This document shows positions 12,701-22,802 of a stretch of 23,093 bases of DNA, piece after piece (position 1 is the stretch's first letter; every line of letters starts with the position of its first letter). The notes below the pieces were generated by a model. It saw nothing but the letters and a program-made list of their open reading frames with translations, was not told the origin of the DNA and did no database searches. Source of the stretch: Planctomycetota bacterium (GTDB lineage: Bacteria; Planctomycetota; SZUA-567; H5-PLA8). Made by a program: the position numbers and the translations under genes. The stretch covers positions 1 to 23,093 of the forward strand of contig JAPLOD010000620.1 in assembly GCA_026692735.1 (NCBI GenBank), written 5' to 3'.

Positions 12701-14221
12701 CGTGTAGACCGACTCGTCCAGCAGCCTGTCGCAGGCGCCGGCGCAGGCGGCATTGTTGGGCGCCTGCACGACCTTCTTCGTCTTCTCGTCAACGATCTGT
12801 CTGGCGTAGTAGCGCATCAGGCTCATCAGGGCCTGAGCGCCCTCCGCGGAACCTTTCTTCTGCTCGGCCGTCTTCTGCCACGCGTTCGCGCCGTCGTCGC
12901 CGCTGGCCGCCGTGCCGACATCCACTCCCTTGGTGAGGAGGACCTGCACCTTCTCGCGCGCCTGCCTGGCTTCCGCGGAGAGAGGATACTTTGCGATCAA
13001 CTGGCCGAAGTGCGCCGCGGCGTTCTGGTGCGCTTTCGCCGCCGCCGCCTGGTCCTGGGTCTTGCTGGCTTCGTCCATGGCGATGCAGCCGAGGTTGAAC
13101 AACGCCGTGGCGGCATGCTCCGGGTTGCCGAGCGCATTGGTGTAGGCTTTGACGGCCTCGGGAATCACGCCGTGCTCGCGGTAGATTTCGCCCAGAGCGC
13201 ACTGTGCCTGAGCGTAGCCGCGGCTCTCGGCGCCGACCTTCTTCAGATATTCCTCGACCTTGGCGGCATTCGAGTCCTTTCTGCTCTTCTCGCACATGCC
13301 GAGGACCAGGTATATGTCGTGCTTCAGGGGGCCGTCGGGAACCGTGTCGAGGAACGCCTTGTCGTTCAGGTATCCCATGGCTTTACCGTAGTCCTGCTGC
13401 TCATAGGCAGCCTTGGCGAGCAGCAGCCGCGCCTTCATCTTCAGTTCCGGGTCATAGCGGACATTCTCGAGCCACTTGGCGGCGTCGGCGTACCGTTTCT
13501 TCTCGATACAGAGAACGCCGAGCTGAATGGCCGCGTTGTCGTGGTACTTCTCCAGACCCGCGGGGATCGGCAGCTTGTCCTGCTGGTATTCCGCGATGAC
13601 GTGGCGGAAATTGAGGACGACGCGCGTGAGGATCTCCTCGGCCTTTTCGGGCTGGCCCGTTTTGCGGTAGAACTCCGTGAGGATGGCGTCGGCTTCCATG
13701 CCCGTCGCGTAGCCGTTCTTCTTCAGGTCTGCCTGGACGCGTTGGTGCAGGCTCTCCAGTTCGCCTTGAGCGTCCTTGCCCCGGTTCGCAAGGATGGCCA
13801 TCTTGAACACCAGCAGCTTTGCGGCACGCTGGTCGTTGGGGAAGCGTTTGCAGAACGCGTCAATGCGTTCAGCCGCATTCGTGTAGTCGTTCATCCGGTA
13901 CGCGGTGCACGCCAGGCGGAAGGCTGCGGCGGCCTTGTCGTTCTCGTCGGTGAGGTTCTCCGCCGCCTTGATGAGGCACGTCTTCGCCTGGTCGAATTGC
14001 TTGGTCAGGTAGTAGCATTCGCCAAGCATCAGATACTGCGTGGCGGCCCCGGCCTCCGCTTTCCCACGAACGTCTTCCAGCAGAACCTTGATGGCGTCGT
14101 TGTACTGGCGGCTCTTCATGAGCCCCGACGCGCGCGAGACGGCTTCGCTGCCGGATGAGCCGGTACTGAGAACACAGAGAACCACGGGGAGCAGGCCAGG
14201 CCACAAGGAGCGTAAGCGCAT
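9785..14221 (-). CDS. Very large secreted TPR-repeat protein
   Basis: Start chosen at the ATG at 14219-14221 (MRLRSLWPGLLPVVLCVLSTGSSGSEA signal peptide); the ORF-track start at 14329 adds 36 aa without a signal. About 1478 aa of TPR-like repeats. Stop overlaps the start of the downstream TPR gene, which implies translational coupling. Confidence 0.7.
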   Translation of the reverse strand: MRLRSLWPGLLPVVLCVLSTGSSGSEAVSRASGLMKSRQYNDAIKVLLEDVRGKAEAGAATQYLMLGECYYLTKQFDQAKTCLIKAAENLTDENDKAAAAFRLACTAYRMNDYTNAAERIDAFCKRFPNDQRAAKLLVFKMAILANRGKDAQGELESLHQRVQADLKKNGYATGMEADAILTEFYRKTGQPEKAEEILTRVVLNFRHVIAEYQQDKLPIPAGLEKYHDNAAIQLGVLCIEKKRYADAAKWLENVRYDPELKMKARLLLAKAAYEQQDYGKAMGYLNDKAFLDTVPDGPLKHDIYLVLGMCEKSRKDSNAAKVEEYLKKVGAESRGYAQAQCALGEIYREHGVIPEAVKAYTNALGNPEHAATALFNLGCIAMDEASKTQDQAAAAKAHQNAAAHFGQLIAKYPLSAEARQAREKVQVLLTKGVDVGTAASGDDGANAWQKTAEQKKGSAEGAQALMSLMRYYARQIVDEKTKKVVQAPNNAACAGACDRLLDESVYTGKGLSDDAWKALRTEILYQRGVCELASVGTHATAGGRNAPTYLEKADAEKALRCFEAAKRLVDPKRLDMVKQIEIGLLEAMFKSERKEDKAAAEKRFGELENDFGADPRFQRLAVELAEWYRQQGRYAEAAKAYEGVADRGRELGDEDLLKALYMAGSLYSKAAYEAQQKKGETSYGIYVYPAETLAIGDDLLKTYRPLQKEVTAKWPRANMTARDALVYLSKLSGVPFVWSPQKGKDSVAEYVETRRVTLRDGKATVAQFLSQILDLSRHRLALDIGLTDGQPTLREIGGHDPNSVIRGRPGGLNWESCPPISQEEASKPIEIYDEKSADKRFAPLTCSYGAWDKVHRARERQGVMLHTVLARVEELGQTRILWAEGIEKDAKLAAEFKQAPAALGNNNVSCAKVLAAALAEKGLRYRIVPRDVSTELYERAKDAFNKIRRVDPKSKYGEKSLFALALNFYNQNDYAKMKAVLREYLKVFDSPGNEYYYHACFWLGWVFEYERKFHDACAYYARAAEESLVLYKPAAGEALPPKEELKKRFSYDLLFALSEQLSGQFKDMKLADFADFVHLNSHVAVRLDPSAQAVDAPVNRDAFKNVAGFDVLCEVLQNLGLSVRGENVQKEIAEKAYFRLATVYAKDNLMEQALENCNALLTRFPNTPRKKDIYALKLDIYKGLKDYRNVLAALDELKALSGSDLEQYKFDLEMASIHFDLCNYKKAAELYRSALASVKDLGERAGVQEAYARSLFRDGDLQGALAQYSVLVKEDTTDIGQFTDRLMVFCLNFALDKAAEREFPEDAQRFILEYEKLSDGERQKLPGAALARATWIYYVMALVDLKKGRTAEAIQKLAAASNSPDEALAGEASYLVGATHLAARSFDKAKEAFEYVLFTTRSTEASVKATYALGLTFQALDLRDKARERFKQIVERYPLSPYVELIRKNPLYQETQPALPEKPAGGDVKPQARPNTTE

Positions 14222-14726
14222 CGTGAAGGTTCCCGCCCGCGTGGCCGGCACCGCCGCTCCCAGACCGCGGCGGGCGGCGTTTTGCAGATGCGGCCCCCAG
14301 CTCATGTTTAGTGTACCCCGTGGCTGCACGCAAGTCCCCGGTTCTTTACGGCAATCCCTCGATGCCGGCGCCGGCGTAAGTCGTGGCCGCGCAACGGCAA
14401 AGCGGTCTGCCGGGGTTGCGCAAAGGGGTTGCGCGTCCGCGGGCCTTTCAGCGCGCGAAAAAAAATTCCGTCAGAGGCCTTGATTTTGTGCAAGTCATGG
14501 GGTTTGCTGTACGTTTAGTTGATGGGAGGCGTGTGCTTTCAAATGGTTTGTTGGCGGTTGTGCATACGAGCAAGATCACGGTCCTTGTCGCGGAAGCAGA
14601 CAGGACAAGGCGCCGTGCTGCCCTTCATTGGGCATCGCCTCGTCATGCGCCCGTATAAAAACAGTGAAACGGATCGCGTGGGAGGCGCCGCACCCTAGGA
14701 AGCAAGGGACAAGTCAGAGAGTCCTC

Positions 14727-14763
14727 AGCCTTCCGGGGTGCGAACCTCGGAAGGCTTTTTGTT
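14727..14763 (+). terminator. Rho-independent terminator (stem CCTTCCG/CGGAAGG followed by CTTTTTGTT)
   Basis: AGCCTTCCG-GGGTGCGAACCT-CGGAAGGCT followed by TTTTTGTT on the + strand. In the minus orientation there is no T-tract after the stem. Confidence 0.5.
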
Positions 14764-14956: not shown

Positions 14957-15030
14957 GCGGATGTAGCTCAATGGCAGAGTGCGAGCGTGCCAGGCTCGAG
15001 ACGCGGGTCCAACTCCCGCCTTCCGCTCCA
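14957..15030 (+). tRNA. tRNA-Gly (anticodon GCC), CCA encoded
   Basis: Manual fold. Acceptor GCGGATG/CTTCCGC (1 mismatch). D-arm TAGCTCAATGGCAGAG. Anticodon stem CGAGC/GCTCG with loop GTGCCAG. T-arm GCGGGTCCAACTCCCGC. 74 nt. Confidence 0.6.
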
Positions 15031-15041
15031 AAGTTGCACGC

Positions 15042-15112
15042 GCCGCGGTGTCACGGCGGCCTGCCTCTCTTGTAAGGAGGCGGCGCGGGTTCGACTCCCG
15101 CCTGCGGCTCCA
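15042..15112 (+). tRNA. tRNA-Thr-like (anticodon TGT), 71 nt with reduced D-arm
   Basis: Acceptor GCCGCGG/CTGCGGC. Anticodon stem CCTCT/GGAGG with loop CTTGTAA. T-arm GCGGGTTCGACTCCCGC. Discriminator T plus CCA. D region only 15 nt and does not fold canonically. Confidence 0.4.
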
Positions 15113-15142
15113 ACGAACGAAGGAGGTGCTTTCGCAAGCGGC

Positions 15143-15214
15143 GCCGCAGTGTGATGGGTCACAAGCCTCTTTCGTAAAGAGGCGGCGCGGGTCCGATTCC
15201 TGCCTGCGGCCCCA
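15143..15214 (+). tRNA. tRNA-Thr-like (anticodon CGT), 72 nt with mini D-arm
   Basis: Acceptor GCCGCAG/CTGCGGC. D region TGTGATGGGTCACAAG (stem GTGA/TCAC, 4-nt loop). Anticodon stem CCTCT/AGAGG with loop TTCGTAA. T-loop TCCGATT. CCA encoded. Confidence 0.4.
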
Positions 15215-15233
15215 GAACGGAAGGCACTTCAGA

Positions 15234-15307
15234 TGCGGTGTGGCGAAACGGTATCGTGCCTGCCTGTTACGCAGGAGTTGGAGGTCCGAGTCCTCCCGCC
15301 GCAGCCA
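15234..15307 (+). tRNA. tRNA-Asn (anticodon GTT)
   Basis: Acceptor TGCGGTG/CGCCGCA. D-stem GCGA/TCGT. Anticodon stem CCTGC/GCAGG with loop CTGTTAC. T-arm GGAGGTCCGAGTCCTCC. Discriminator G plus CCA. Confidence 0.6.
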
Positions 15308-15319
15308 GATAACAGGAGT

Positions 15320-15395
15320 GGCCCTGTCGTCTAGCGGTTGAGGACGCCGGCCTTTCAAGCCGGAAACCGGGGTTCGAGTCCCCGTGGGGCTGCCA
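15320..15395 (+). tRNA. tRNA-Glu (anticodon TTC)
   Basis: Glu-type body (TCGTCTAGCGGTTGAGGAC, 3-bp D-stem). Anticodon stem CCGGC/GCCGG with loop CTTTCAA. T-arm CGGGGTTCGAGTCCCCG. Acceptor pairs with 3 G-U. CCA encoded. Confidence 0.55.
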
Positions 15396-15490
15396 ACGAT
15401 TGCGGATTGAGGATTGACGATTGCGGATTGGCGTGGGTGTGATTGGGGACGTGTGTGGGACAATCCGCGATCCGCAATCTGACATCCGAA
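15396..15490. repeat. tRNA-3'-flanking palindromic heptad-repeat element, copy 1
   Basis: 5' arm ACGATTGCGGATTGAGGATTGACGATTGCGGATTGG (tandem GATTGNG heptads). 3' arm CAATCCGCGATCCGCAATCTGACATCCGAA is the imperfect reverse complement. Begins 1 nt after the CCA of tRNA-Glu. Confidence 0.7.
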
Positions 15491-15506
15491 GTGGGCAAAG
15501 CGGAGC

Positions 15507-15581
15507 GTCTCTGTCGGCTAATCAGCAGGCCGCCAGATCCTCGATCTGGAAACGCGGGTGCGAACCCCGCCGGAGACGCCA
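15507..15581 (+). tRNA. Noncanonical tRNA (possible Glu, anticodon CTC); C33, no G18G19, T-loop TGCGAAC
   Basis: Acceptor GTCTCTG/CGGAGAC. D-loop AATCAGCA lacks GG. Anticodon stem CCAGA/TCTGG with loop TCCTCGA (C at position 33). T-arm GCGGGTGCGAACCCCGC (G55). CCA encoded. Confidence 0.4.
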
Positions 15582-15658
15582 ACGATTGCGGATTGCGGAT
15601 TGACGATTGCGGATTGGTTTGCCGGGCAATCCAAAATCGCAAATCCAAAATCCAAAAT
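15582..15658. repeat. Palindromic heptad-repeat element, copy 2 (divergent 3' arm with CCAAAAT repeats)
   Basis: ACGATTGCGGATTGCGGATTGACGATTGCGGATTGG ... CAATCCAAAATCGCAAATCCAAAATCCAAAAT. Starts 1 nt after the CCA of the preceding tRNA. Confidence 0.65.
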
Positions 15659-15663
15659 GGGAA

Positions 15664-15737
15664 GGGGCGATGGTGAAACAGGATCACACGACCTCCGCAC
15701 GGTCGCGTTTCGGGTGCAAGTCCCGATCGCTCCACCA
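15664..15737 (+). tRNA. tRNA-Ala (anticodon CGC) with G3-U70; C33 and G55 variants
   Basis: Acceptor GGGGCGA/TCGCTCC gives G3-T70, the Ala identity pair. D-stem GTGA/TCAC with loop AACAGGA. Anticodon stem CGACC/GGTCG with loop TCCGCAC. T-arm TCGGGTGCAAGTCCCGA. Discriminator A plus CCA. Confidence 0.5.
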
Positions 15738-15740
15738 CAC

Positions 15741-15829
15741 GGATAGCGAACCGGCCAAGTGGCCGGCACCGTCTCGAAAACGGTTGGTCGCTTAACCGCG
15801 ATGAGGACCAGGACCTCCGCTATCCGCCA
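15741..15829 (+). tRNA. Class II tRNA-Ser (anticodon CGA) with aberrant T-loop (ACCAGGA); possibly nonfunctional
   Basis: Perfect 7-bp acceptor GGATAGC/GCTATCC, discriminator G, CCA. Anticodon arm ACCGTCTCGAAAACGGT matches the bacterial Ser(CGA) arm. Long variable arm. The T-arm lacks TTCRA. 89 nt. Confidence 0.45.
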
Positions 15830-15871
15830 GATTCGAGGAGCAGAGGGCCGGCAAGACGCCGGCGGCACAAC

Positions 15872-15962
15872 GGAAGCGCGCCAGAGCCAGGAGAGCTGGG
15901 CCGGTTTGCTACACCGGGGTCTGAAAGATGATCAGCGGGTTCGAATCCCGCCGCTTCCGCCA
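15872..15962 (+). tRNA. Class II tRNA-Ser (anticodon GCT)
   Basis: Acceptor GGAAGCG/CGCTTCC perfect. D-stem CCAG/CTGG. Anticodon stem CCGGT/ACCGG with loop TTGCTAC. 17-nt variable arm. T-arm GCGGGTTCGAATCCCGC. Discriminator G plus CCA. 91 nt. Confidence 0.6.
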
Positions 15963-15979
15963 GAAAGGAGAACGCGAGT

Positions 15980-16055
15980 GCGTCCGTAGCTCGAGCGGCA
16001 GAGCAACCGGCTCTTAACCGGTTGGGTGTGGGTTCAAGCCCCACCGGGCGCACCA
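15980..16055 (+). tRNA. tRNA-Lys (anticodon CTT)
   Basis: Acceptor GCGTCCG/CGGGCGC. TAGCTCGAGCGGCAGAGC D-arm. Anticodon stem ACCGG/CCGGT with loop CTCTTAA. T-arm GTGGGTTCAAGCCCCAC. Discriminator A plus CCA. Confidence 0.65.
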
Positions 16056-16057
16056 GA

Positions 16058-16128
16058 TAATTGCGGGTTGAGGATCTCGGATTGTGGATTGGGCTGACGC
16101 GAACACGAATGCGGAATCCGCAATCCGA
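16058..16128. repeat. Palindromic heptad-repeat element, copy 3 (degenerate)
   Basis: TAATTGCGGGTTGAGGATCTCGGATTGTGGATTGGG ... GAATGCGGAATCCGCAATCCGAGG. Arms recognisable but more diverged than the other copies. Confidence 0.5.
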
Positions 16129-16137
16129 GGTTGGAGC

Positions 16138-16214
16138 GCCGCAGTAGCCGAACAGGCACAGGCGCCTGCCTTAGAAGCAGGAGAGTGTGGGTTCAAATCA
16201 CACCTGCGGCACCA
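16138..16214 (+). tRNA. tRNA of uncertain identity: class-I structure with anticodon TAG (a Leu anticodon on a short-variable-arm body)
   Basis: Acceptor GCCGCAG/CTGCGGC, discriminator A, CCA. Anticodon stem CCTGC/GCAGG with loop CTTAGAA. 5-nt variable loop. T-arm GTGGGTTCAAATCACAC with one G-A mismatch. Confidence 0.4.
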
Positions 16215-16300
16215 AACGCACGCGGACTGAGCGCGCGAGGCTTGGCGGTTTCCTCCCGATGGCGGGAGGTGGTAGCGGGGGCGATGCGAAACAGAAAGGA

Positions 16301-16376
16301 GCGTTCGTAGCTCGAGTGGCAGAGCAGCCGGCTTTTAACCGGCAGGGTGTGGGTTCGAGCCCCACCGAGCGCACCA
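16301..16376 (+). tRNA. tRNA-Lys (anticodon TTT)
   Basis: Near-duplicate of the Lys(CTT) gene. Anticodon stem GCCGG/CCGGC with loop CTTTTAA. T-arm GTGGGTTCGAGCCCCAC. CCA encoded. Confidence 0.65.
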
Positions 16377-16378
16377 AG

Positions 16379-16474
16379 TGATTGCGGATTGGGGATTGAC
16401 GATTGCGGATTGGCTCGTGATGGCACGAGCGGCGTGCTGTTCCAATCCACAATCCGAAATCCGCAATCCGCAAT
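16379..16474. repeat. Palindromic heptad-repeat element, copy 4 (different central segment)
   Basis: GTGATTGCGGATTGGGGATTGACGATTGCGGATTGG-CTCGTGATGGCACGAGCGGCGTGCTG-TTCCAATCCACAATCCGAAATCCGCAATCCGCAAT. Confidence 0.65.
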
Positions 16475-16480
16475 GGAAGT

Positions 16481-16554
16481 TGCCGGGTCGGCCAGCGGTA
16501 GGCCGCCTGACTCTGACTCAGGAAAGCGGGGTTCGAATCCCTGCCCGGCAACCA
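16481..16554 (+). tRNA. tRNA-Gln (anticodon CTG)
   Basis: U1-A72 acceptor TGCCGGG/CCCGGCA. D-stem GGCC/GGCC. Anticodon stem CCTGA/TCAGG with loop CTCTGAC. T-arm CGGGGTTCGAATCCCTG. CCA encoded. Confidence 0.6.
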
Positions 16555-16577
16555 GAACCAGGAGGAGAGTGCTTCGC

Positions 16578-16649
16578 GCGGTCGGAGTGTTCACGGCGGC
16601 ACGCAACCCTTCCAAGGTTGAGGAGCGGGTTCGACTCCTGCCGGCCGCA
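16578..16649 (+). tRNA. tRNA-Gly (anticodon TCC), CCA not encoded
   Basis: Acceptor GCGGTCG/CGGCCGC. Anticodon stem CAACC/GGTTG with loop CTTCCAA. T-arm GCGGGTTCGACTCCTGC. 3' end ...CGGCCGC-A followed by CTT. Confidence 0.55.
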
Positions 16650-16661
16650 CTTAAGACCCAC

Positions 16662-16735
16662 TGGCCTGTCGTCCAGCGGGAGGACACTGGGCTTTGAACC
16701 CGGGGACCGAGGTTCGAATCCTCGCGGGCCAACCA
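16662..16735 (+). tRNA. tRNA-Gln (anticodon TTG)
   Basis: U1-A72 acceptor TGGCCTG/CGGGCCA. Glu/Gln-type D-arm TCGTCCAGCGGGAGGAC. Anticodon loop CTTTGAA. T-arm CGAGGTTCGAATCCTCG. CCA encoded. Confidence 0.6.
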
Positions 16736-16775
16736 GATGGGTGACGGTAAGCCTTTGTGGTGCGTGAGAAGTTGA

Positions 16776-16846
16776 CGGGCATTCGTTCCGGTTGAACGGG
16801 CGAGTCTTATAAACCCGCCGGCCAGGTTCAACTCCTGGATGCCCGA
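16776..16846 (+). pseudogene. tRNA-like element / probable tRNA pseudogene (good acceptor and T-arm, no foldable anticodon arm)
   Basis: Perfect acceptor CGGGCAT/ATGCCCG. D-stem GTTC/GAAC. T-arm CCAGGTTCAACTCCTGG. The anticodon region GGCGAGTCTTATAAACCCGCC gives only a 4-bp stem with a 13-nt loop. No CCA. Confidence 0.3.
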
Positions 16847-16864
16847 GATCGGCAACGGGGACCT

Positions 16865-16940
16865 CGGGGCGTAGCGTAGCGGCGAACGCGCCTGCGTCGG
16901 GAGCAGGAGAACGCTGGTTCGAATCCAGTCGCCCCGACCA
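16865..16940 (+). tRNA. tRNA-Pro (anticodon CGG)
   Basis: C1-G72 acceptor CGGGGCG/CGCCCCG. Anticodon stem CCTGC/GCAGG with loop GTCGGGA (G37). T-arm GCTGGTTCGAATCCAGT. Discriminator A plus CCA. Confidence 0.65.
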
Positions 16941-16963
16941 GACTAGGGAGGTGAAGAGGGAAA

Positions 16964-17041
16964 CGGGATGTAGCTCAGTTTGCGCAGAGCGCCTGGCTTG
17001 GAACCAGGAGGGCGTCGGTTCGAATCCGGCCATCCCGACCA
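16964..17041 (+). tRNA. tRNA-Pro (anticodon TGG)
   Basis: C1-G72 acceptor CGGGATG/CATCCCG. D-arm TAGCTCAGTTTGCGCAGAGC. Anticodon stem CCTGG/CCAGG with loop CTTGGAA. T-arm GTCGGTTCGAATCCGGC. CCA encoded. Confidence 0.6.
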
Positions 17042-17104
17042 GAACAGAACGTGCTGAGTGGAGAGCGACGAGTAGCGAGTGACGGGGAGAGGAGGGGAGG
17101 GCGT

Positions 17105-17179
17105 TGGGCGGTGTTGTAGCGGGCTGCATGTCTGCCTGATACGCAGACGGTGGAGGTCCAACTCCTCCCCGCCCAACCA
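17105..17179 (+). tRNA. tRNA-Ile (anticodon GAT), tentative
   Basis: Acceptor TGGGCGG/CCGCCCA. Anticodon stem TCTGC/GCAGA with loop CTGATAC. T-arm GGAGGTCCAACTCCTCC. D-stem imperfect. CCA encoded. Confidence 0.5.
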
Positions 17180-17201
17180 GAACGGGAAGCGCTGACGTTG
17201 T

Positions 17202-17276
17202 GTTGACCTCAGTGTAACGGCCGCACGCGAGAATGTGAGTCTCGAGGCACGGGTTCAACTCCCGTAGGTCAACCCA
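17202..17276 (+). tRNA. tRNA-His (anticodon GTG) with encoded G-1 and C73
   Basis: G-1 precedes acceptor TTGACCT/AGGTCAA; discriminator C (bacterial His signature). D-stem GTGT/GCAC. Anticodon stem CGAGA/TCTCG with loop ATGTGAG. T-arm ACGGGTTCAACTCCCGT. CCA encoded. Confidence 0.65.
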
Positions 17277-17278
17277 GA

Positions 17279-17367
17279 CGATTGCGGATTGATGATTGCG
17301 GATTGGGTTGGGTGTGATTGATGACGCGCGACGGCCAATCCGCAATCGTCAATCCGAAATTCGCAAT
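17279..17367. repeat. Palindromic heptad-repeat element, copy 5 (canonical)
   Basis: ACGATTGCGGATTGATGATTGCGGATTGGGTTGGGTGTGATTGATGACGCGCGACGGCCAATCCGCAATCGTCAATCCGAAATTCGCAAT. Starts 1-2 nt after the CCA of tRNA-His. Confidence 0.75.
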
Positions 17368-17373
17368 AAGAGG

Positions 17374-17449
17374 GGCCGCGTGGCCGAGCAGCGAAGGCGT
17401 CCGCCTGCAGAGCGGAAGAGCGCGGGTGCGAGTCCCGCCGCGGCCTCCA
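17374..17449 (+). tRNA. tRNA-Cys (anticodon GCA); T-loop TGCGAGT (G55), D-loop without GG
   Basis: Acceptor GGCCGCG/CGCGGCC. Discriminator T, the Cys identity U73. Anticodon stem TCCGC/GCGGA with loop CTGCAGA. T-arm GCGGGTGCGAGTCCCGC. CCA encoded. Confidence 0.6.
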
Positions 17450-17450
17450 G

Positions 17451-17518
17451 CGATTGCGGATTGGGCTGGGTGTGATTGATGACGCGCGACGGCCAATCCG
17501 CAATCGTCAATCGGCAAT
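17451..17518. repeat. Palindromic heptad-repeat element, copy 6 (short 5' arm)
   Basis: CGATTGCGGATTGGGCTGGGTGTGATTGATGACGCGCGACGGCCAATCCGCAATCGTCAATCGGCAAT. Confidence 0.7.
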
Positions 17519-17525
17519 GGGGAAC

Positions 17526-17602
17526 GTTCCCGAAGGCGAAGAAGTGGAGCCGCCACCCTGTCACGGTGGAGGAAGCCGGTGCGACTCCGGTCGGGAGCGC
17601 CA
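17526..17602 (+). tRNA. tRNA-Asp (anticodon GTC); T-loop TGCGACT (G55)
   Basis: Acceptor GTTCCCG/CGGGAGC. Discriminator G. Anticodon stem CCACC/GGTGG with loop CTGTCAC (canonical Asp loop). T-arm GCCGGTGCGACTCCGGT. CCA encoded. Confidence 0.65.
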
Positions 17603-17604
17603 GA

Positions 17605-17701
17605 ACGATTGTGGATTGATGATTGCGGATTGCGGATTGGGTTGGGTGTGATTGATGACGCGCGAGGACCAATCCGCAATCGTCAATCGGCAATCCGAAA
17701 T
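17605..17701. repeat. Palindromic heptad-repeat element, copy 7
   Basis: ACGATTGTGGATTGATGATTGCGGATTGCGGATTGGGTTGGGTGTGATTGATGACGCGCGAGGACCAATCCGCAATCGTCAATCGGCAATCCGAAAT. Confidence 0.75.
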
Positions 17702-17706
17702 GAGGA

Positions 17707-17782
17707 AGCGGGTGGCTAGGCCTGGTGGTCTGGCGGGTTTCATAAGCCTGCAAGGGTGGTTCGATTCCACTGCCCGTTACCA
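17707..17782 (+). tRNA. tRNA-Met (anticodon CAT; elongator, initiator or Ile2 not distinguishable)
   Basis: Acceptor AGCGGGT/GCCCGTT (with G-U pairs). D-stem CTAG/CTGG. Anticodon stem CGGGT/GCCTG (3 WC + 2 GU) with loop TTCATAA. T-arm GGTGGTTCGATTCCACT. Discriminator A plus CCA. Confidence 0.5.
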
Positions 17783-17784
17783 GG

Positions 17785-17880
17785 CGATTGGGGATTGATG
17801 ATTGCGGATTGCGGATTGGGCTGGGTGTGATTGATGACGCGCGAAAGCCAATCTGCAATCGGCAATCCGCAATCCGAAAT
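17785..17880. repeat. Palindromic heptad-repeat element, copy 8
   Basis: GCGATTGGGGATTGATGATTGCGGATTGCGGATTGGGCTGGGTGTGATTGATGACGCGCGAAAGCCAATCTGCAATCGGCAATCCGCAATCCGAAAT. Confidence 0.75.
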
Positions 17881-17886
17881 GAGGAC

Positions 17887-17960
17887 GGCCGCTTCGTCCA
17901 ACGGGAGGACACCAGTCCTACACACTGGGGACGAAGGTTCGATTCCTTCAGCGGCCACCA
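17887..17960 (+). tRNA. Glu/Gln-type tRNA body with anticodon TAC (Val) and C33; identity uncertain
   Basis: Perfect acceptor GGCCGCT/AGCGGCC. TCGTCCAACGGGAGGAC D-arm. Anticodon stem CCAGT/ACTGG with loop CCTACAC. T-arm GAAGGTTCGATTCCTTC. Discriminator A plus CCA. Confidence 0.4.
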
Positions 17961-18076
17961 GAAAGGAGACAGCGCAAGAGATTCGATGCCGCCGGGACCA
18001 GTGGCGCGCTTCGCCTCACCCAGTGATCGGCGCGGCGTGTTCCATGAAGGATTGTGACGAAGGCGGTGTCGGAAAA

Positions 18077-18151
18077 GGGGATGTAGCTCAACGGCAGAGC
18101 GCCGGGGATTGGCCCCGGAGGTTGCGGGTTCGAGTCCCGTCATTCCTGCCA
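18077..18151 (+). tRNA. tRNA-like gene of uncertain identity (anticodon loop GATTGGC has A at position 33; alternatively a 6-bp stem with 5-nt loop)
   Basis: Acceptor GGGGATG/CATTCCT (with G-U pairs). TAGCTCAACGGCAGAGC D-arm. Stem CCGGG/CCCGG. T-arm GCGGGTTCGAGTCCCGT. Discriminator G plus CCA. Body resembles the Gly(GCC) gene at 14957. Confidence 0.35.
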
Positions 18152-18224
18152 GGATGGCTAGCTCAGGAGGTAGAGCACCGAGCTCATAACTCGGACGTTG
18201 CGGGTTCGACTCCCGCGCCAACTG
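18152..18224 (+). tRNA. tRNA-Met (anticodon CAT), CCA not encoded; begins immediately after the CCA of the previous tRNA
   Basis: Acceptor GGATGGC/GCCAACT (one A-A mismatch at 3-70). TAGCTCAGGAGGTAGAGC D-arm. Anticodon stem CCGAG/CTCGG with canonical loop CTCATAA. T-arm GCGGGTTCGACTCCCGC. 3' end G followed by CCG. Confidence 0.55.
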
Positions 18225-18565
18225 CCGCCTTGAAAGCGGCTCGTAAACCAGGCTGGAGGGGGGCGGACGTTGCACCTGCCCGCCGGGACCGGACGCCCGT
18301 ACAGGCCCGATCCCGGCAGCACGCGACGGCGCCCTGAAGCTCGCGGATTCGCTCCGGCCCAAATCGCGGGACGTTCCTCGCGAACGCACTGGTCCACACG
18401 ACAGCGCGGGAGCGCGCGAACCGAACGCGAAAGTAGGCCGCAGCTCAAGTTGTGCTCCGCGCTGTTCGGTGTGGCGGGACATAGCTCCGCCTCCCGAAGG
18501 CCACAACGAAGAGATCAGACGGGCGACACAAGGGATCGCCCAACGAGGACGAGGAGGGACGAAAC

Positions 18566-19690
18566 ATGGTGGCGATGGGAGTGATGGTGGGCATGCGCAA
18601 GTTTAAGGTGAGGGCGCATGAGCGCGGCTTGCTGTTCAGCGACAACGAGTTCCAGGTCTTGCTCGAGCCGGGCCGCCACTGGTTCTTCGACCCGCTCTTC
18701 AAGATCAGGGTGGACGTGGTCTCGGTGCGCAACGTGTGGCTCAAGCACAGGGACCTGGACGTGATCGCCAAGTCGGGGGCGTTGGAGGGCCAGGCGCAGG
18801 TCGTGGACCTGAAGGACAACGAGCGCGCGCTGTTCTGGGTTGACGGCCGCTTTGAGGCTGTCCTCAAGCCCGGCCTGCACGCGCTGTGGACGGTCTTCCA
18901 CGACGTCAAGGTCGAGGTCGTGGACGCGCGCGCCGTGCGGTTCGAGCATGAGGGCCTGGCCGTGATCCTGAAGTCCGAGGGCGCGGGCGAGGCGTTCGAT
19001 GTGTTCAACGTGGAAGAGGGCCACGCCGGCCTCTTCTTCAAGGACGGCGAGCACAAGGCCACGCTCTCGCCCGGCGTGCACGCCTTCTGGAAGGGCCAGG
19101 GCAAGGTGAAGCTGTACCACGTGGACCTGCGTGAGCAGGTCTGCGACGTGGCCGGCCAGGAGATCATGACCGCCGATAAGGTCACGCTCCGTCTCAACGC
19201 AGTGGCGACGTACCGCGTTGTTAATGGGCTCAAGGCCGTGGCTGAAGTCGAGGACTACCGCCAGGCGCTGTACCGCGAAGCGCAGCTCGCGCTGCGCGCG
19301 GTGATCGGGACGCGCGAGCTGGATGCGCTGCTGGCGGAGAAGGACGCGGTGGCAAAGGAGCTTGAGGGCGTCCTCAAGAACCGTGCGGCCGCGCTTGGCC
19401 TGGAGGTCACGGCGCTGGGCATCAGGGACATCATCCTGCCCGGCGAGATGAAGGACCTGATGAACAAGGTCACCGAGGCCCGGAAGGCCGCCGAGGCGGC
19501 ACTGATCACGCGCCGGGAGGAGACGGCCGCGATGAGGATGCAGGCCAACACGGCCAAGATCCTCGAGACCAGCCCGACGCTGATGAGGATCCGCGAACTG
19601 GAGACCCTCGAGAAGGTTGTCGCCAAGGCCAACCTGCAGGTGGTGCTCGCGGAGAAGGGTCTTGCGGATCGTGTCATGAAGCTGCTGTGA
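18566..19690 (+). CDS. SPFH/band-7 (stomatin/prohibitin/flotillin-like) domain protein
   Basis: 374 aa. ATG at 18566 with GGAGGG 8 nt upstream. The central region carries the SPFH core with a C-terminal coiled-coil rich in E/K/A (...ITRREETAAMRMQANTAKILETSP...). Located between the two tRNA blocks on the same strand. Confidence 0.85.
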   Translation: MVAMGVMVGMRKFKVRAHERGLLFSDNEFQVLLEPGRHWFFDPLFKIRVDVVSVRNVWLKHRDLDVIAKSGALEGQAQVVDLKDNERALFWVDGRFEAVLKPGLHALWTVFHDVKVEVVDARAVRFEHEGLAVILKSEGAGEAFDVFNVEEGHAGLFFKDGEHKATLSPGVHAFWKGQGKVKLYHVDLREQVCDVAGQEIMTADKVTLRLNAVATYRVVNGLKAVAEVEDYRQALYREAQLALRAVIGTRELDALLAEKDAVAKELEGVLKNRAAALGLEVTALGIRDIILPGEMKDLMNKVTEARKAAEAALITRREETAAMRMQANTAKILETSPTLMRIRELETLEKVVAKANLQVVLAEKGLADRVMKLL

Positions 19691-19804
19691 GTGCGGCGGC
19701 TTGAACAAGGCAGTTGAAAGGAGGTGATCCGTTATCTCGTCGGCGTGCGAGGCTCCCGGGGAGGCAGCGTTCGGTCTGGCTCCTCGGGGGGCTCGCCGTC
19801 ACCC

Positions 19805-19890
19805 GCTCCCGTGGCGGAATGCAGACGCGGCCGGTTCAAACCCGGCCAGCCGTGAAGGCTGTGGAGGTGCGAATCCTCCCGGGAGCACCA
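19805..19890 (+). tRNA. Class II tRNA-Leu (anticodon CAA); T-loop TGCGAAT (G55), D-loop without GG
   Basis: Acceptor GCTCCCG/CGGGAGC perfect. D-arm TGGCGGAATGCAGACGCG (Leu-type). Anticodon stem GCCGG/CCGGC with loop TTCAAAC. Variable-arm hairpin CAGCCGTGAAGGCTG. T-arm GGAGGTGCGAATCCTCC. Discriminator A plus CCA. 86 nt. Confidence 0.65.
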
Positions 19891-19892
19891 GG

Positions 19893-19988
19893 CGATTGCG
19901 GATTGGAGATTGAGGATTGCGGATTGGGTTGGGCGTGACCGACGGCGTGCGAAGGCCAATCCGCAATCGTCAATCTGCAATCCGAAAT
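19893..19988. repeat. Palindromic heptad-repeat element, copy 9
   Basis: GCGATTGCGGATTGGAGATTGAGGATTGCGGATTGGGTTGGGCGTGACCGACGGCGTGCGAAGGCCAATCCGCAATCGTCAATCTGCAATCCGAAAT. Confidence 0.75.
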
Positions 19989-19994
19989 GAAGGG

Positions 19995-20069
19995 GCTCTC
20001 GTAGCTCAAGGGATAGAGCGGCCGGCTTCTAACCGGCTGATCGGGGTCCGAGTCCTCGCGAGAGCGCCA
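19995..20069 (+). tRNA. tRNA-Arg (anticodon TCT)
   Basis: Acceptor GCTCTCG/CGAGAGC. TAGCTCAAGGGATAGAGC D-arm. Anticodon stem GCCGG/CCGGC with loop CTTCTAA. T-arm CGGGGTCCGAGTCCTCG. Discriminator G plus CCA. Confidence 0.65.
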
Positions 20070-20080
20070 GATTGAAGGAT

Positions 20081-20156
20081 GCTCCTGTCGCTCAATGGAA
20101 CAGGGCGCTGCTCTCCTAAGGCAGAGATCCGGGTTTGAGTCCCGGCAGGAGCGCCA
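20081..20156 (+). tRNA. tRNA-Arg (anticodon CCT)
   Basis: Acceptor GCTCCTG/CAGGAGC perfect. D-stem GCTC/GGGC. Anticodon stem CTGCT/GGCAG with loop CTCCTAA. T-arm CCGGGTTTGAGTCCCGG (T-loop TTTGAGT). Discriminator G plus CCA. Confidence 0.6.
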
Positions 20157-20158
20157 GG

Positions 20159-20254
20159 CGATTGCGGATTGACGATTGTGGATTGCGGATTGGGTTGGGC
20201 GTGACCGACGACGTGCGAAGGCCAATCCGCAATCGTCAATCTACAATCCGAAAT
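20159..20254. repeat. Palindromic heptad-repeat element, copy 10
   Basis: GCGATTGCGGATTGACGATTGTGGATTGCGGATTGGGTTGGGCGTGACCGACGACGTGCGAAGGCCAATCCGCAATCGTCAATCTACAATCCGAAAT. Confidence 0.75.
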
Positions 20255-20260
20255 GAGGGG

Positions 20261-20335
20261 GCTCTCGTAGCTCAAGGGATAGAGCCGCTGGCTTCGAACC
20301 AGCAGATCGGGGTCCAAGTCCTCGCGAGAGCGCCA
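20261..20335 (+). tRNA. tRNA-Arg (anticodon TCG)
   Basis: Paralog of the Arg(TCT) gene with an identical acceptor and D-arm. Anticodon stem GCTGG/CCAGC with loop CTTCGAA. T-arm CGGGGTCCAAGTCCTCG. CCA encoded. Confidence 0.6.
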
Positions 20336-20337
20336 GG

Positions 20338-20412
20338 TCGCCCGTGGTGTAGCAGAGCGCACACGACCGTGCGAAGGTCGAGGACCGGGTGCGAGTCCCG
20401 GCGGGCGGACCA
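20338..20412 (+). tRNA. tRNA-Arg (anticodon GCG), tentative; T-loop TGCGAGT (G55), D-loop without GG
   Basis: Acceptor TCGCCCG/CGGGCGG. D-stem GTGT/GCAC with loop AGCAGAGC. Anticodon stem CGACC/GGTCG with loop GTGCGAA. T-arm CCGGGTGCGAGTCCCGG. Discriminator A plus CCA. Starts 2 nt after the previous tRNA. Confidence 0.5.
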
Positions 20413-20414
20413 GA

Positions 20415-20509
20415 CGATTGCGGATTGATGATTGTGGATTGCGGATTGGATTGGGTGTGACCGATGACGTGCGAAGGCCAGTCCGCAATCGGCAATCTGC
20501 AATCCGCAA
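20415..20509. repeat. Palindromic heptad-repeat element, copy 11
   Basis: CGATTGCGGATTGATGATTGTGGATTGCGGATTGGATTGGGTGTGACCGATGACGTGCGAAGGCCAGTCCGCAATCGGCAATCTGCAATCCGCAAT. Confidence 0.75.
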
Positions 20510-20516
20510 TAGGAAT

Positions 20517-20592
20517 GGGGCTTGAGCAGGTGTGGTCATTGCGCCCGGCTGAAAACCGGGAGAACTCGGTTCGATCCCGAGGGGCCCCACCA
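20517..20592 (+). tRNA. tRNA-Phe (anticodon GAA)
   Basis: Acceptor GGGGCTT/GGGCCCC (2 G-U). D-stem GCAG/TTGC. Anticodon stem CCCGG/CCGGG with loop CTGAAAA. T-arm CTCGGTTCGATCCCGAG. Discriminator A plus CCA. Confidence 0.65.
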
Positions 20593-20594
20593 GA

Positions 20595-20675
20595 CGATTG
20601 CGGATTGATGATTTTGGATTGCGGATTTGGTTGGGTGTGACCGATGACGTGCGGAGGCCAATCCGCAATCCACAA
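20595..20675. repeat. Palindromic heptad-repeat element, copy 12 (short 3' arm)
   Basis: CGATTGCGGATTGATGATTTTGGATTGCGGATTTGGTTGGGTGTGACCGATGACGTGCGGAGGCCAATCCGCAATCCACAAT. Confidence 0.7.
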
Positions 20676-20682
20676 TGGGAAC

Positions 20683-20771
20683 GGGGGTGGATGTGCGGAC
20701 TGGGAGCCGGGCGGGCCTGTAAAGCCCGCGCTCGATGAAGCTGGGAGGTTCGATTCCTCACGCCCCCACCA
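20683..20771 (+). tRNA. Class II tRNA-Tyr (anticodon GTA)
   Basis: Acceptor GGGGGTG/CGCCCCC. Anticodon stem CGGGC/GCCCG with canonical Tyr loop CTGTAAA. Long variable arm CGCTCGATGAAGCTG. T-arm GGAGGTTCGATTCCTCA. Discriminator A plus CCA. 89 nt. Confidence 0.6.
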
Positions 20772-20773
20772 GA

Positions 20774-20875
20774 CGATTGCGGATTGATGATTTTGGATTG
20801 CGGATTGGGTTGGGTGTGACCGATGACGTGCGGACGCCAATCCGCAATCCGAAATCCACAATCCAAAATCCAAAA
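20774..20875. repeat. Palindromic heptad-repeat element, copy 13 (3' arm extended with CCAAAAT units)
   Basis: CGATTGCGGATTGATGATTTTGGATTGCGGATTGGGTTGGGTGTGACCGATGACGTGCGGACGCCAATCCGCAATCCGAAATCCACAATCCAAAATCCAAAAT. Confidence 0.75.
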
Positions 20876-20881
20876 TAGGCC

Positions 20882-20955
20882 AAGGCGCGACGGCCCGGCG
20901 GCCTGTGCGGTCTCCAAAACCGCTCGACAGGGCTCGACACCCTGGCGCCTTGCCA
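20882..20955 (+). tRNA. tRNA-Trp (anticodon CCA)
   Basis: A1-U72 acceptor AAGGCGC/GCGCCTT perfect. Discriminator G. Anticodon stem GCGGT/ACCGC with canonical Trp loop CTCCAAA. T-arm CAGGGCTCGACACCCTG (C54). D-arm irregular. CCA encoded. Confidence 0.55.
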
Positions 20956-20959
20956 CTTG

Positions 20960-21053
20960 AGTGCGGATTGATGATTGCGGAGTGCGGATTGGGATGGGTG
21001 TGACCGCTGACGTGCGGACGCCAATCCGCAATCCGAAATCCACAATCCGCAAT
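20960..21053. repeat. Palindromic heptad-repeat element, copy 14 (5' end degenerate); lies directly upstream of the HNH gene
   Basis: GTGCGGATTGATGATTGCGGAGTGCGGATTGGGATGGGTGTGACCGCTGACGTGCGGACGCCAATCCGCAATCCGAAATCCACAATCCGCAAT. Ends 1 nt before the GGGAGGA RBS of the HNH CDS. Confidence 0.7.
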
Positions 21054-21065
21054 GGGAGGACAGCC

Positions 21066-21656
21066 GTGGTGCTGAACGATGCAACGCTGGTTCTGAACAA
21101 GCACTGGGTGCCGGTGGATTTCACCACGGTGTTGGACGCGCTATGCAAGCTGTACGCGGGTTCTGCGCGCGCCATCAAGCCTGACGATTACTCCGTGCAC
21201 GACTTCGAATCGTGGGCGCAGTTGAAGGTTGCCGAGGGCGCTCCCTGCGTGCGCACGGCCACCATCGCCATACCCGTGCCCGAGGTGATCATCCTGGCAC
21301 ACTATGGCCGCGTTCCAGACAGGGGCCTGGCGTTCTCGCGCGGCAATCTGTTCAGGCGTGACCGTTACACGTGTCAGTACTGCGGCAGGCGCCCGGGCAC
21401 CGCGGAACTCACGATTGACCACGTCAGCCCGCGCAGCCGCGGTGGCATCTCAAGCTGGACCAACTGCGTCGTTGCCTGCTTGAAGTGCAACTCCAGGAAG
21501 GCCAACAGGACGGCGGCGGAAGCCGGCCTTGTGCTGCGCCGGCAGCCTGCGAAGCCGGAGTGGAGCCCGCGGCTGGTTGTGGCTCGGATTCCGTGCAAGG
21601 CGAGCTGGGAGAAGTTCGTCTCGGACGCCTACTGGAACGTGGAACTGAAGGAGTAA
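21066..21656 (+). CDS. HNH endonuclease family protein
   Basis: GTG at 21066 with GGGAGGA (21054-21060) 5-6 nt upstream. 196 aa. Contains CQYCG(20)LTIDHVSPRSRGG(10)NCVVACLKCNSRK, a zinc-finger-flanked H-N-H motif. The ORF-track N-terminal extension back to 20961 is translation of the upstream repeat (MRIDDCGVRIG...). Confidence 0.7.
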   Translation: MVLNDATLVLNKHWVPVDFTTVLDALCKLYAGSARAIKPDDYSVHDFESWAQLKVAEGAPCVRTATIAIPVPEVIILAHYGRVPDRGLAFSRGNLFRRDRYTCQYCGRRPGTAELTIDHVSPRSRGGISSWTNCVVACLKCNSRKANRTAAEAGLVLRRQPAKPEWSPRLVVARIPCKASWEKFVSDAYWNVELKE

Positions 21657-21673: not shown

Positions 21674-21700
21674 GGGCCGGATCGCGGGCAGCGGTCCGGC
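21674..21700. terminator. Intergenic hairpin between convergent HNH and transporter genes (possible bidirectional terminator)
   Basis: GGCCGGA-TCGCGGGCAGCGG-TCCGGCC: 7-bp GC-rich stem, 18 nt after the HNH stop and about 40 nt after the minus-strand gene stop. No clear U-tract, so confidence is modest. Confidence 0.4.
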
Positions 21701-21740
21701 CCTCAGCGCAAGCTCCGAGAAACCTTGAGCCCGCCGGGAC

Positions 21741-22802
21741 TCAGAGCGCTTCGCCCATGGCGTTGCCCTTGCCCAGGATGCATACGCCGATGATGAGTAT
21801 GACAATCCCGGCGACGATCCAGGCAATGCTCTGCCGGCTGGCGCCTTTCCATTCGCCGCTGCGGAAACCATGCACGTTGCCGACGATGATGGCGAACGAC
21901 ATGAACGCGGCGTAGCCAACCGAAATGCCCAGTGTGCCGAGGTTCGAGAAAGCCAGGCCGAAGAAAAGGATCGCGCCATCGTGCAGGAAGGCCATCGTGG
22001 CGGCCAGCAGCAGGACCAGGCCCACGCCCGGCTTGGCAAAGCTGGACCACGTCTTGTTCTTCGTGAGCTGGAAGCCGCAGTAGAGACACGATGACACCGC
22101 GCCGCCCCACAGGATCAACGCCATCACCGCGAACGCGGCGCGCCATGACGAGTTGCCGAAGTTCTCCGCTGCAACGGTCCCGACTTTGCCGGCAAAACTC
22201 GCCGCCACCGCGTAGCACGCGCACAAGATGCCGGAGACGAGGCCGATGATCACGCCGACGAGCATCCTCGGTCTACGCGCGTCGGTCTCGGAAGCCGCTG
22301 CATCGGTTTTGCTTTCCTTGATGCTCTGTTCCTTCAGCAGGGCTGCCTTGCCGCACACGATCACGCCGAGCACGCACACGGCGACCCCCGCCAGGATCAC
22401 GTAGCCGGCAGGTGTCCCGACCTTGTCGGCGTTGTGGATGAGCATCGGCGCCATGGAGCCGAAGATGATCTGCGCGCCGTAGTTGATCGAATACGCGAGC
22501 GACAGGCCGATGAACGCAAAACTCATCCCCAGCGTCATGGAGCCGAGGCCCCAGAGGAAGCCGAAGACCAGGGGCATGATAAGAGCCTCGACGCCCGCGG
22601 TGGAGTAGATGGCGTAGAACTCGTTCACCAGGAGCGGACCGAAGATGACCGGGATCAGCACGGTGACGAAAAGGAAGAACGGCCCCCACAGGTTCTCCCA
22701 CGCCATGCTTTTGGGAGCGTACTTGCTTGGCAGTCCAAATGAGCCGCCGCAGATCGCGCCCAGAAGCACAAAGACGAACCCCCAGATCATCGCTGTAGTC
22801 AT
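21741..22802 (-). CDS. RhaT-family sugar:H+ symporter (L-rhamnose-proton symporter-like, DMT superfamily)
   Basis: Start chosen at the ATG at 22800-22802 (MTTAMIWGFVFVLLGAICGGSFGLPSKYAPK...); the ORF-track N-terminal 25 aa look non-native. About 10 predicted TMs. N-terminal motifs align with E. coli RhaT (IG..SA..YAPFKKV..WSWE..W and FG.MWG.GN.NYG). Confidence 0.75.
   Translation of the reverse strand: MTTAMIWGFVFVLLGAICGGSFGLPSKYAPKSMAWENLWGPFFLFVTVLIPVIFGPLLVNEFYAIYSTAGVEALIMPLVFGFLWGLGSMTLGMSFAFIGLSLAYSINYGAQIIFGSMAPMLIHNADKVGTPAGYVILAGVAVCVLGVIVCGKAALLKEQSIKESKTDAAASETDARRPRMLVGVIIGLVSGILCACYAVAASFAGKVGTVAAENFGNSSWRAAFAVMALILWGGAVSSCLYCGFQLTKNKTWSSFAKPGVGLVLLLAATMAFLHDGAILFFGLAFSNLGTLGISVGYAAFMSFAIIVGNVHGFRSGEWKGASRQSIAWIVAGIVILIIGVCILGKGNAMGEAL

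Follow-up and report, generated by a model that had tools for sequence, protein, structure and literature searches.

The window analysed here comprises an entire contig of 23,093 bp (G+C content 63%) from a metagenome-assembled genome (MAG) of the Planctomycetota. Ordinary chromosomal genes occupy positions 1-14,300 and 21,700-23,093 and encode a HEAT-repeat protein, a GFO/IDH/MocA oxidoreductase, ExbB/ExbD, two giant TPR proteins and RhaT. Between them lies a long tRNA array with a density of 33 genes per 6 kb, all located on the + strand, and the spacers of this array harbor 14 palindromic elements built from tandem heptamers (heptads) of the GATTGCG type (Table 1). Two of the tRNA genes, at 15507-15581 and 17526-17602, were missed by ARAGORN and detected by Rfam only; both are situated directly upstream of an element (copies 2 and 7).

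Table 1. Positions of the tRNA array, its associated protein genes and the 14 palindromic elements within the window.
Feature	Position	Strand	Context and remarks
Long tRNA array (L-array type)	14957..20955	+	30 tRNAs called by ARAGORN, 2 by Rfam only, 1 tRNA-like sequence
Copy 1	15396..15492	+	After tRNA-Glu; 5 heptads; divergent core
Copy 2	15582..15662	+	After Rfam-only tRNA 15507-15581; 3' arm decayed to AAATC units; short loop; z -2.6
Copy 3	16056..16132	+	After tRNA-Lys ctt; outer 5' arm degenerate; z -3.7
Copy 4	16377..16478	+	After tRNA-Lys ttt; own core; 104-nt spacer
Copy 5	17277..17372	+	His to Cys; core family TGGGTGTGATTGATGACGCGCGA; z -7.9
Copy 6	17450..17522	+	After Cys; short form, 2 heptads in 5' arm; core family 96%
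Copy 7	17604..17704	+	Odd tRNA-Asp-like gene to Met; 104-nt spacer; z -6.1
Copy 8	17783..17884	+	Met to Val; 104-nt spacer
Slipin (SPFH/Band 7) gene	18566..19690	+	Within the array; marker of the array type
Copy 9	19891..19992	+	Leu caa to Arg tct; core variant GACCGACGGCGTGCGAAGG; z -7.7
Copy 10	20157..20258	+	Arg cct to Arg tcg; segmental duplicate of copy 9 and downstream tRNA-Arg
Copy 11	20413..20515	+	Arg gcg to Phe; z -8.2
Copy 12	20593..20681	+	Phe to Tyr; variant heptad GATTTTG in common with copy 13
Copy 13	20772..20878	+	Tyr to Trp
Copy 14	20956..21058	+	Trp to HNH start codon; missing at the same junction in L313
HNH endonuclease gene	21066..21656	+	Directly 3' of the array

tRNA arrays are defined by at least 20 tRNA genes at a density of at least 2 per kb (PMC4758250), and the L-type in addition by a single orientation and by neighbouring HNH or translation-stress partner genes; all of these features are found in the window, the partners being the slipin and HNH genes. 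The L-array corresponds to the long tRNA array of Santamaria-Gomez et al. (PMC8421152), also named tRNA array unit by Tran et al., and in the L-array of Anabaena HNH endonuclease, slipin and RtcB are co-regulated with the array (PMC10272220). Compared with the searched sections of these two papers, the window shares the co-oriented tRNA genes (33 at more than 5 per kb), the adjacent HNH gene, the slipin gene and the patchy taxonomy; records of slipin homologues with 72-73% identity come from Planctomycetota as well as Vicinamibacteria, and the array architectures likewise have a patchy occurrence. Arrays of this type spread by horizontal transfer and bring supernumerary tRNAs, and the window array may have been acquired in the same way. 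It is an L-array with slipin and HNH genes, and the host locus is therefore of a known kind. What differs are the spacers. Palindromes within them are not mentioned in the searched sections of the L-array papers, where 'spacer' and 'hairpin' give 0 matches in PMC8421152, and the spacers of the related arrays compared here mostly measure 1-20 nt.

The elements are 73-107 nt long and account for about 6% of the window. In each of them, a 5' arm of (GATTGNN)n and a 3' arm of (NNCAATC)n or AAATC units enclose a core of about 25-30 nt; the termini have the form (G/A)C-GATTGCG ... CGCAAT-G(A/G)G. The pentamer GATTG occurs 73 times in the window versus 15 expected occurrences and CAATC 53 times versus 12; 64 and 40 of these, respectively, fall within the 14 elements at a strict spacing of 7 nt, and no heptad run was found outside the array in the whole window. 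A preliminary description of this DNA, which had proposed 14 palindromic heptad copies in the tRNA spacers and none outside the array, is thus confirmed on both points, whereas its dimensions have to be adjusted. The 5' arms contain 2-5 clear heptads instead of 3-5 (two in copy 6, while that of copy 3 is degenerate). All 14 copies do follow an encoded CCA, but at an offset of 2-4 nt rather than 1-3 nt, and the next gene, though close, begins after 4-27 nt and not within about 5-15 nt; moreover, it is the HNH gene in the case of copy 14 and a tRNA-like sequence called by neither ARAGORN nor Rfam in the case of copy 2. Exactly 104 nt are measured for six spacers. The arms are kept, as had been stated, and the cores of copies 1-4 differ; copies 5-14, however, belong to one core family with 79-96% identity. 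The peptide strings DCGL, RIGL, IRN, NPQS and QSAI, which arise from the repeats in all six frames, bear out that many open reading frames (ORFs) of this region are bogus. Within this contig, the elements are locally enriched at array gene ends, as 14 of 33 such ends carry a copy, compared to none of 10 protein-gene ends (Fisher p = 0.010).

As RNA, the copies fold with minimum free energies of -29 to -57 kcal/mol. They fold far more stably than shuffled sequence: four intact copies reach z-scores from -6.1 to -8.2, and the values of the decayed copies 2 and 3 are -2.6 and -3.7. The stems consist of 5-bp GATTG/CAATC helices which are broken by mostly unpaired 2-nt positions, resulting in an imperfect hairpin of about 30 bp. 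When ten copies of the window were aligned with four from a relative, the pairs proved nearly invariant, and a compensatory double change was present in one of 20 consensus pairs. Because the other 19 pairs show no compensatory change, the arms are kept as conserved sequence rather than as covarying structure. The sense strand folds better than its complement in all 14 window copies (in total -626 versus -498 kcal/mol, with 50 versus 10 G.U pairs). However, the copies have a G/T-rich core in common, so that these 14 observations are not independent, and in other elements the advantage is found in 9 of 19 heptad hairpins from other arrays and in 13 of 21 hairpins located after single protein genes. 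Since the strand bias fails to recur in independent elements, there is no general signature of transcript-level selection, and the selection on structure assumed in the preliminary description is not upheld by either test. Searches of Rfam with the hairpins gave no family at gathering thresholds and none with E≤1 to a bacterial family; matches were limited to tRNAs and to sub-threshold chance similarities with eukaryotic miRNA precursor families.

Related arrays were retrieved via the slipin, which has thousands of close homologues. The 80 metagenomic loci fetched in this way are mostly tRNA arrays with up to 41 genes and display three architectures, two of which have spacers of 1-20 nt and carry zero heptads; the third, to which the window belongs, carries heptad palindromes of several kinds. 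The layout tRNAs, slipin, tRNAs, HNH seen in the window is also present in a Planctomycetota contig of 2.6 Mb (L124) and in a close relative, a metagenome contig whose slipin is 83% identical (L313); the array of L122 additionally contains RtcB. The heptad GATTGCG is found in L313, L129, L130 and L141. Beside it, other heptads are in use, namely GGTTTCT in L129, AGGACTG and GTTTTGA in L130, and GATTTGC and AATTTTG in L141, while L122 carries CATTTGT. L124 has GATCTGT and CGGAATG and none of the GATTG type, and CGGTTGC palindromes stand beside the protein genes adjoining its array. Since two of the three architectures are free of heptads and L124 uses other ones, the palindromes are not a fixed part of the array. 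The comparison of single junctions leads to a more differentiated picture: the Arg-gcg to Tyr junction is filled in L313, L130 and L141, and the junction between the Asp-like tRNA and Met is filled in the window and L129, in each case with the same arms and unrelated cores. Conversely, the Trp-HNH junction comprises 24 nt in L313 versus copy 14 in the window, with near-identical flanks, and, in turn, a copy which L313 carries between slipin and Leu-caa is missing from the window. Element presence is thus polymorphic between related arrays. The tRNA-Leu(cag) to tRNA-Arg(tct) spacer of L313 is filled by six direct, uninverted GTGATGA heptads (2325-2378).

Outside tRNA arrays, the heptad is widespread. 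A scan of one genome per species with the pattern GATTGCGGATTGNNGATTG yielded at least 120 loci. Among the matches listed, heptad arrays occur in about a dozen phyla, mostly in uncultured organisms of soil and sediment; represented are Acidobacteriota, Planctomycetota, Verrucomicrobiota, Gemmatimonadota, Chloroflexota, Bacteroidota, Nitrospirota, Methylomirabilota, Binatota, Hydrogenedentota, deltaproteobacterial lineages and others. A complete scan of viral sequences revealed GATTGCGGATTGNNGATTG in 107 contigs, some of which contain 4-7 arrays, whereas a core-specific pattern gave 0 matches in viral contigs. The 120 genomic and 107 viral loci, retrieved by the heptad pattern alone, provided a sample of 227 loci with 377 arms. 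Just one of these arms follows a tRNA, at a locus which is itself a small tRNA cluster (L089). The heptad arrays and palindromes mostly have protein genes as neighbours, and 23% of 104 hairpin arms start no more than 5 nt from a stop codon (mode 2-3 nt), compared to 1.3% of random positions, as counted for frames of at least 100 codons in crude open-frame gene calls. This distance measure was preferred because the heptads contain no stop codons, so that naive ORF calls place arms inside ORFs. On account of these two results the element is not tRNA-specific, contrary to the tRNA adjacency proposed before. Clear examples after genes are found between convergent genes as well as within operons, and the offset of 2-4 nt after CCA follows the same rule as the offset of 2-5 nt after stop codons.

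The arms moreover have a fixed polarity. When arms with at least 80% pairing were evaluated by folding, 118 paired with a downstream and 19 with an upstream partner; evaluated by motif, the GATTG arm is 5' in 27 cases and 3' in none. About a third or more of the arms form inverted-arm hairpins, and single uninverted arms of up to 22 units make up about half of the arrays or more, some of them lying directly upstream of start codons. Two viral contigs, L280 (487-7171) and L271, carry 4-6 single-arm (GATTGCG)n arrays with up to 22 units, each followed by a conserved GAAGAGAAATA motif; those of L280 sit about 18 nt upstream of an ATG, a position that suggests a 5' untranslated region or promoter-proximal module. 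Further variants of the architecture are GATTGCG arms nested within the arms of a second heptad, GTGACAG/CTGTCAC (L004, 4780-4950), a palindrome of 400 nt with other tandem repeats in its loop (L111, 2519-2930), and arms of about 200 nt with mixed GATTG units (L086, 195-725).

Within the window, part of the multiplication of the copies took place by segmental duplications that included the tRNAs. Copy 9 with its tRNA-Arg and copy 10 with its tRNA-Arg are 90% identical over 205 nt, and the tRNA-Lys genes were duplicated together with copies 3 and 4 (84% identity). Neighbouring copies are most alike and have derived variants in common, which suggests exchange between neighbouring spacers. Both the duplicated segments and the variants shared by neighbours point to local duplication and exchange rather than to long-range hopping. 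A mobile partner was not encountered: no shared transposase lies between arm pairs 0.4-3.5 kb apart in the small sample provided by the 227 loci, the only recurrent protein being a Phage_Mu_F-like head protein. A BLAST search with copy 7 gave no match among the plasmids of PLSDB or the phages of INPHARED, to which the low-complexity filter may have contributed.

The reading favoured here, with some reserve, is that the 14 elements represent a locally amplified sub-family of widespread extragenic palindromes, which are built from GATTGCG-type heptamers, are not specific for tRNAs and resemble repetitive extragenic palindromic (REP) sequences. Replication slippage would alter the number of heptads, and the dense gene 3' ends of an acquired and probably weakly expressed array would offer many tolerated sites. 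If transcribed, a copy would form the imperfect hairpin of about 30 bp right next to the 3' end of the preceding tRNA. Like a REP sequence or an RNase III site of phage T7, it would then act as a 3'-end or processing hairpin and not as a terminator, by blocking 3' exonucleases or by serving as an entry site for RNase III/E. The arms are probably recognised by a sequence-specific factor, either a protein or a nuclease, since the heptad is kept across lineages and phages while the cores diverge.

Several points weigh against this reading. The source MAG is represented by one contig, and no copy within it lies outside the array, so that dispersal throughout the genome of this organism is presumed. 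Heptad palindromes recur in the architecture group to which the window belongs, and some junctions are filled even in distant members; this recurrence could mean that the elements have a function in that array lineage and are inherited with it. No transposase, target-site duplication or autonomous partner was found. In addition, the stop-codon distances derive from crude open-frame calls.

One alternative assigns the copies a dedicated function within the array, namely the punctuation of a polycistronic pre-tRNA. Here the hairpins would be entry sites for RNase III (or RNase E/G) that separate the tRNAs, leaving a short trailer to be trimmed to the CCA by exonucleases. The location of each copy 2-4 nt after a CCA and a few nt before the next gene would suit such a function, as would duplexes of about 30 bp with regular 2x2 internal loops. 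Co-transcription of the tRNAs is plausible, since no promoter-like or terminator-like signals were found between the array tRNAs, and junctions that remain filled across distant members of the array group are in line with a retained function. However, 19 of the 33 junctions in the window and all junctions in most related arrays manage without a copy, and in many phyla this element is found after protein genes. The better folding of the sense strand in all 14 window copies, which would agree with a role in the transcript, is lost in independent copies from other arrays and after protein genes, and covariation is missing. Dedicated pre-tRNA punctuation is therefore considered an unlikely explanation.

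Similarly doubtful is the possibility that the copies are iterated sites for a sequence-specific protein on DNA or RNA, with one subunit per GATTG at 7-nt spacing and the hairpin being secondary; analogous arrangements would be ribbon-helix-helix repressors on heptad iterons and cold-shock proteins on G/U-rich heptamers. In agreement with protein binding, the window, L313, L130 and L141 and the various phyla have the same heptad around unrelated cores, heptad positions 6-7 are variable and often unpaired, and the arm polarity is strict. The single uninverted arrays of up to 22 units at many loci, some directly upstream of start codons, would also be expected of binding sites. On the other hand, no candidate protein emerged, and the invariance of positions 1-5 is partly imposed by the detector. 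Furthermore, one binding factor would be insufficient, because GGTTTCT, AGGACTG, GTTTTGA and other heptads build the same architecture in sister arrays.

A miniature inverted-repeat transposable element (MITE) targeting tRNA 3' ends, as put forward in the preliminary description, via a transposase recognising the CCA end or the tRNA structure, is very improbable and largely refuted: arms resembling terminal inverted repeats, small size, multiple copies, a CCA end before 14 of 14 window copies and a Trp-HNH site that is occupied in the window but vacant in one relative are all as expected of a MITE, but no consistent target-site duplication exists at the 14 copies or at the Trp-HNH junction, tRNA adjacency drops to 1 of 377 arms in the unbiased sample, segmental duplication carried some copies along with their tRNA, and distant arm pairs enclose Mu-F-like head-protein genes and no transposase. 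Transcription terminators or attenuators between the tRNA genes are likewise largely excluded, for although strong hairpins do lie directly 3' of gene ends, in other genomes also between convergent protein genes, the U-tract that follows the G+C-rich stem-loop of an intrinsic terminator is absent after all 14 copies. None of them is among the terminator-like sites of the contig, which does contain a canonical terminator at 14727-14756; the next tRNA is 4-12 nt away, which leaves no room for a promoter; and elsewhere the next co-directional start codon follows within about 10 nt of the hairpin.

With respect to REP-like palindromes as the favoured class, the closest described relatives are intergenic heptamers. 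Rehm et al. 2015 (PMC4692102) reported GGGAATC in Xanthomonas and GGGGA(T/C)T in Nostoc; the Xanthomonas heptamer forms 186 arrays per genome with about 70 inverted pairs, on average 28 nt from the upstream ORF. The characteristics of this type, tandem intergenic heptamers of at least 2 units and close inverted pairs nearer to the upstream 3' end, are all found in the window. Common to both systems are typically about 4 units, a location that is intergenic in about 90% of cases and nearer the upstream gene, inverted pairs capable of forming stem-loops, and lengths that differ between close relatives (PMC4692102). In contrast, the window repeat uses another heptad that is devoid of a G-tract and hence of quadruplex potential, occurs in many phyla and in viral contigs, possesses a core of 25-30 nt that marks a local family, abuts gene ends at 2-5 nt and is situated within a tRNA array. 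A second comparable case is the heptamer TAACTGA, which forms direct repeats in Beggiatoaceae, Cyanobacteria and Bacteroidetes (PMC4679880). It resembles the present repeat in being one heptamer shared by distant phyla, intergenic, mixed with other heptamers and in part directly upstream of starts; it differs in being nearly always direct, with one inverted set among 170, compared to about a third or more inverted here.

REP sequences and bacterial interspersed mosaic elements (BIMEs; PMC3733652, PMC2817692) are, like the window elements, extragenic palindromes with many copies per genome, often touching stop codons and lying between convergent genes or within operons. However, REPs are not built from tandem heptads and measure 20-40 bp with a GTAG or CGTC tag, the GTAG type being accompanied by a REP-associated tyrosine transposase (RAYT) and the CGTC type having no associated transposase (PMC3733652), whereas the window elements measure 73-107 nt and have no terminal GTAG or CGTC. 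No RAYT was seen alongside them in this one 23-kb contig of the MAG. Integron attC sites were rejected on inspection, as the ends do not correspond to RYYYAAC ... GTTRRRY and solely the position after gene ends is similar. There is no Rfam match, and a full-text search of the accessible literature for the literal heptad strings returned chance primer matches only. Neither the GATTGCG heptad family nor its occurrence in tRNA arrays appears to have been described before; elements of this kind are already known from Xanthomonas and Nostoc.

Further parallels concern single aspects of the elements. Heptamer repeats comparable to those described here are the short tandemly repeated repetitive (STRR) sequences of cyanobacteria. 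Long imperfect intercistronic hairpins that are cut, block 3' exonucleases, or both, are represented by the RNase III sites of phage T7 and the REP-stabilised 3' ends of E. coli. As would be the case in the window, these hairpins lie between cistrons of one transcript, but a build from repeated heptads is not known from those sites. In the tRNA arrays of Entamoeba the spacers between tRNA genes are filled with short tandem repeats; in this case the organism is a eukaryote, the repeats are direct and not palindromic, and the sequences are unrelated.

Apart from the palindromes, the array shows a number of peculiarities. In the stretch downstream of copy 2 (15663-15871, + strand), the tRNA-like sequence has a CCACCA end at 15737, after which about 130 nt are assigned by neither tRNA tool. 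The Rfam-only tRNA at 17526-17602 (+) scores 41.7 bits, has the anticodon loop CUGUCAC (GUC, Asp) and an extended 5' half; its homologue is also located 3' of tRNA-Cys in L124, L129 and L141. Low Rfam scores of several genes in the array suggest that some of them may be decaying. Just before the upstream region of the slipin gene, tRNA-Gln(ttg) and tRNA-Met are joined by a zero-nt spacer (18077-18226, +), an arrangement that recurs in L130, L141 and L122. Directly upstream of this pair follows a conserved non-tRNA segment of about 100 nt (17975-18076, +), which has counterparts in L124 (9255-9368), L129 (1375-1479), L130 (9340-9445) and L141 (1000-1114) with the common motifs CCAGYGGCG, GTGATC, GTTCC and TGACGAAGG. 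RNAalifold predicted 33 pairs for the five sequences, with compensatory changes in 16, and Rfam gave no match; the segment is a candidate for an undescribed structured RNA or an aberrant tRNA-like gene.

Nearly all element-free spacers begin with GA after the CCA and, within a few nt of the next tRNA, contain a run of purines (AGGAG or GGAGG). Examples between 15031 and 17202 of the window are 15113-15142, 15308-15319, 15963-15979, 16555-16577 and 16941-16963, and L124 shows the same pattern; the runs are Shine-Dalgarno-like in appearance. Upstream of the array, about 250 nt of non-coding DNA (14480-14756, +) end roughly 200 nt before the first tRNA in the intrinsic terminator mentioned above, which consists of a 13-bp stem followed by TTTTTGTT. 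This stretch, for which Rfam gave no match, could encode a small RNA.

In many bacterial genomes, intergenic heptamers are reported to be over-represented more strongly than any other long simple repeats (PMC4692102, PMC4679880). Any mechanism proposed for the present family must explain the occurrence of one heptad in about a dozen phyla and in viruses, the strict polarity of its arms and its position 2-5 nt after gene ends. For genome annotation, the repeats call for caution, as they yield long spurious ORFs with IRNPQSA-like peptide repeats. In a bolder version that is at present improbable, the GATTGCG palindromes and their sister heptads would constitute an undescribed cross-phylum punctuation of gene ends, the heptads of the 5' arm being read by a conserved sequence-specific factor such as an RNA chaperone, nuclease or recombinase. 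If true, this would explain the fixed arm polarity, the 2-5-nt offset after stop codons and CCA and the retention in phage genomes, and in the L-array lineage of the window the elements would define tRNA cassettes of about 180 nt. As a probable single transcript includes 14 filled next to 19 empty junctions, and the same junctions are empty in relatives, the array represents a compact natural test bed for the function of such repeats.

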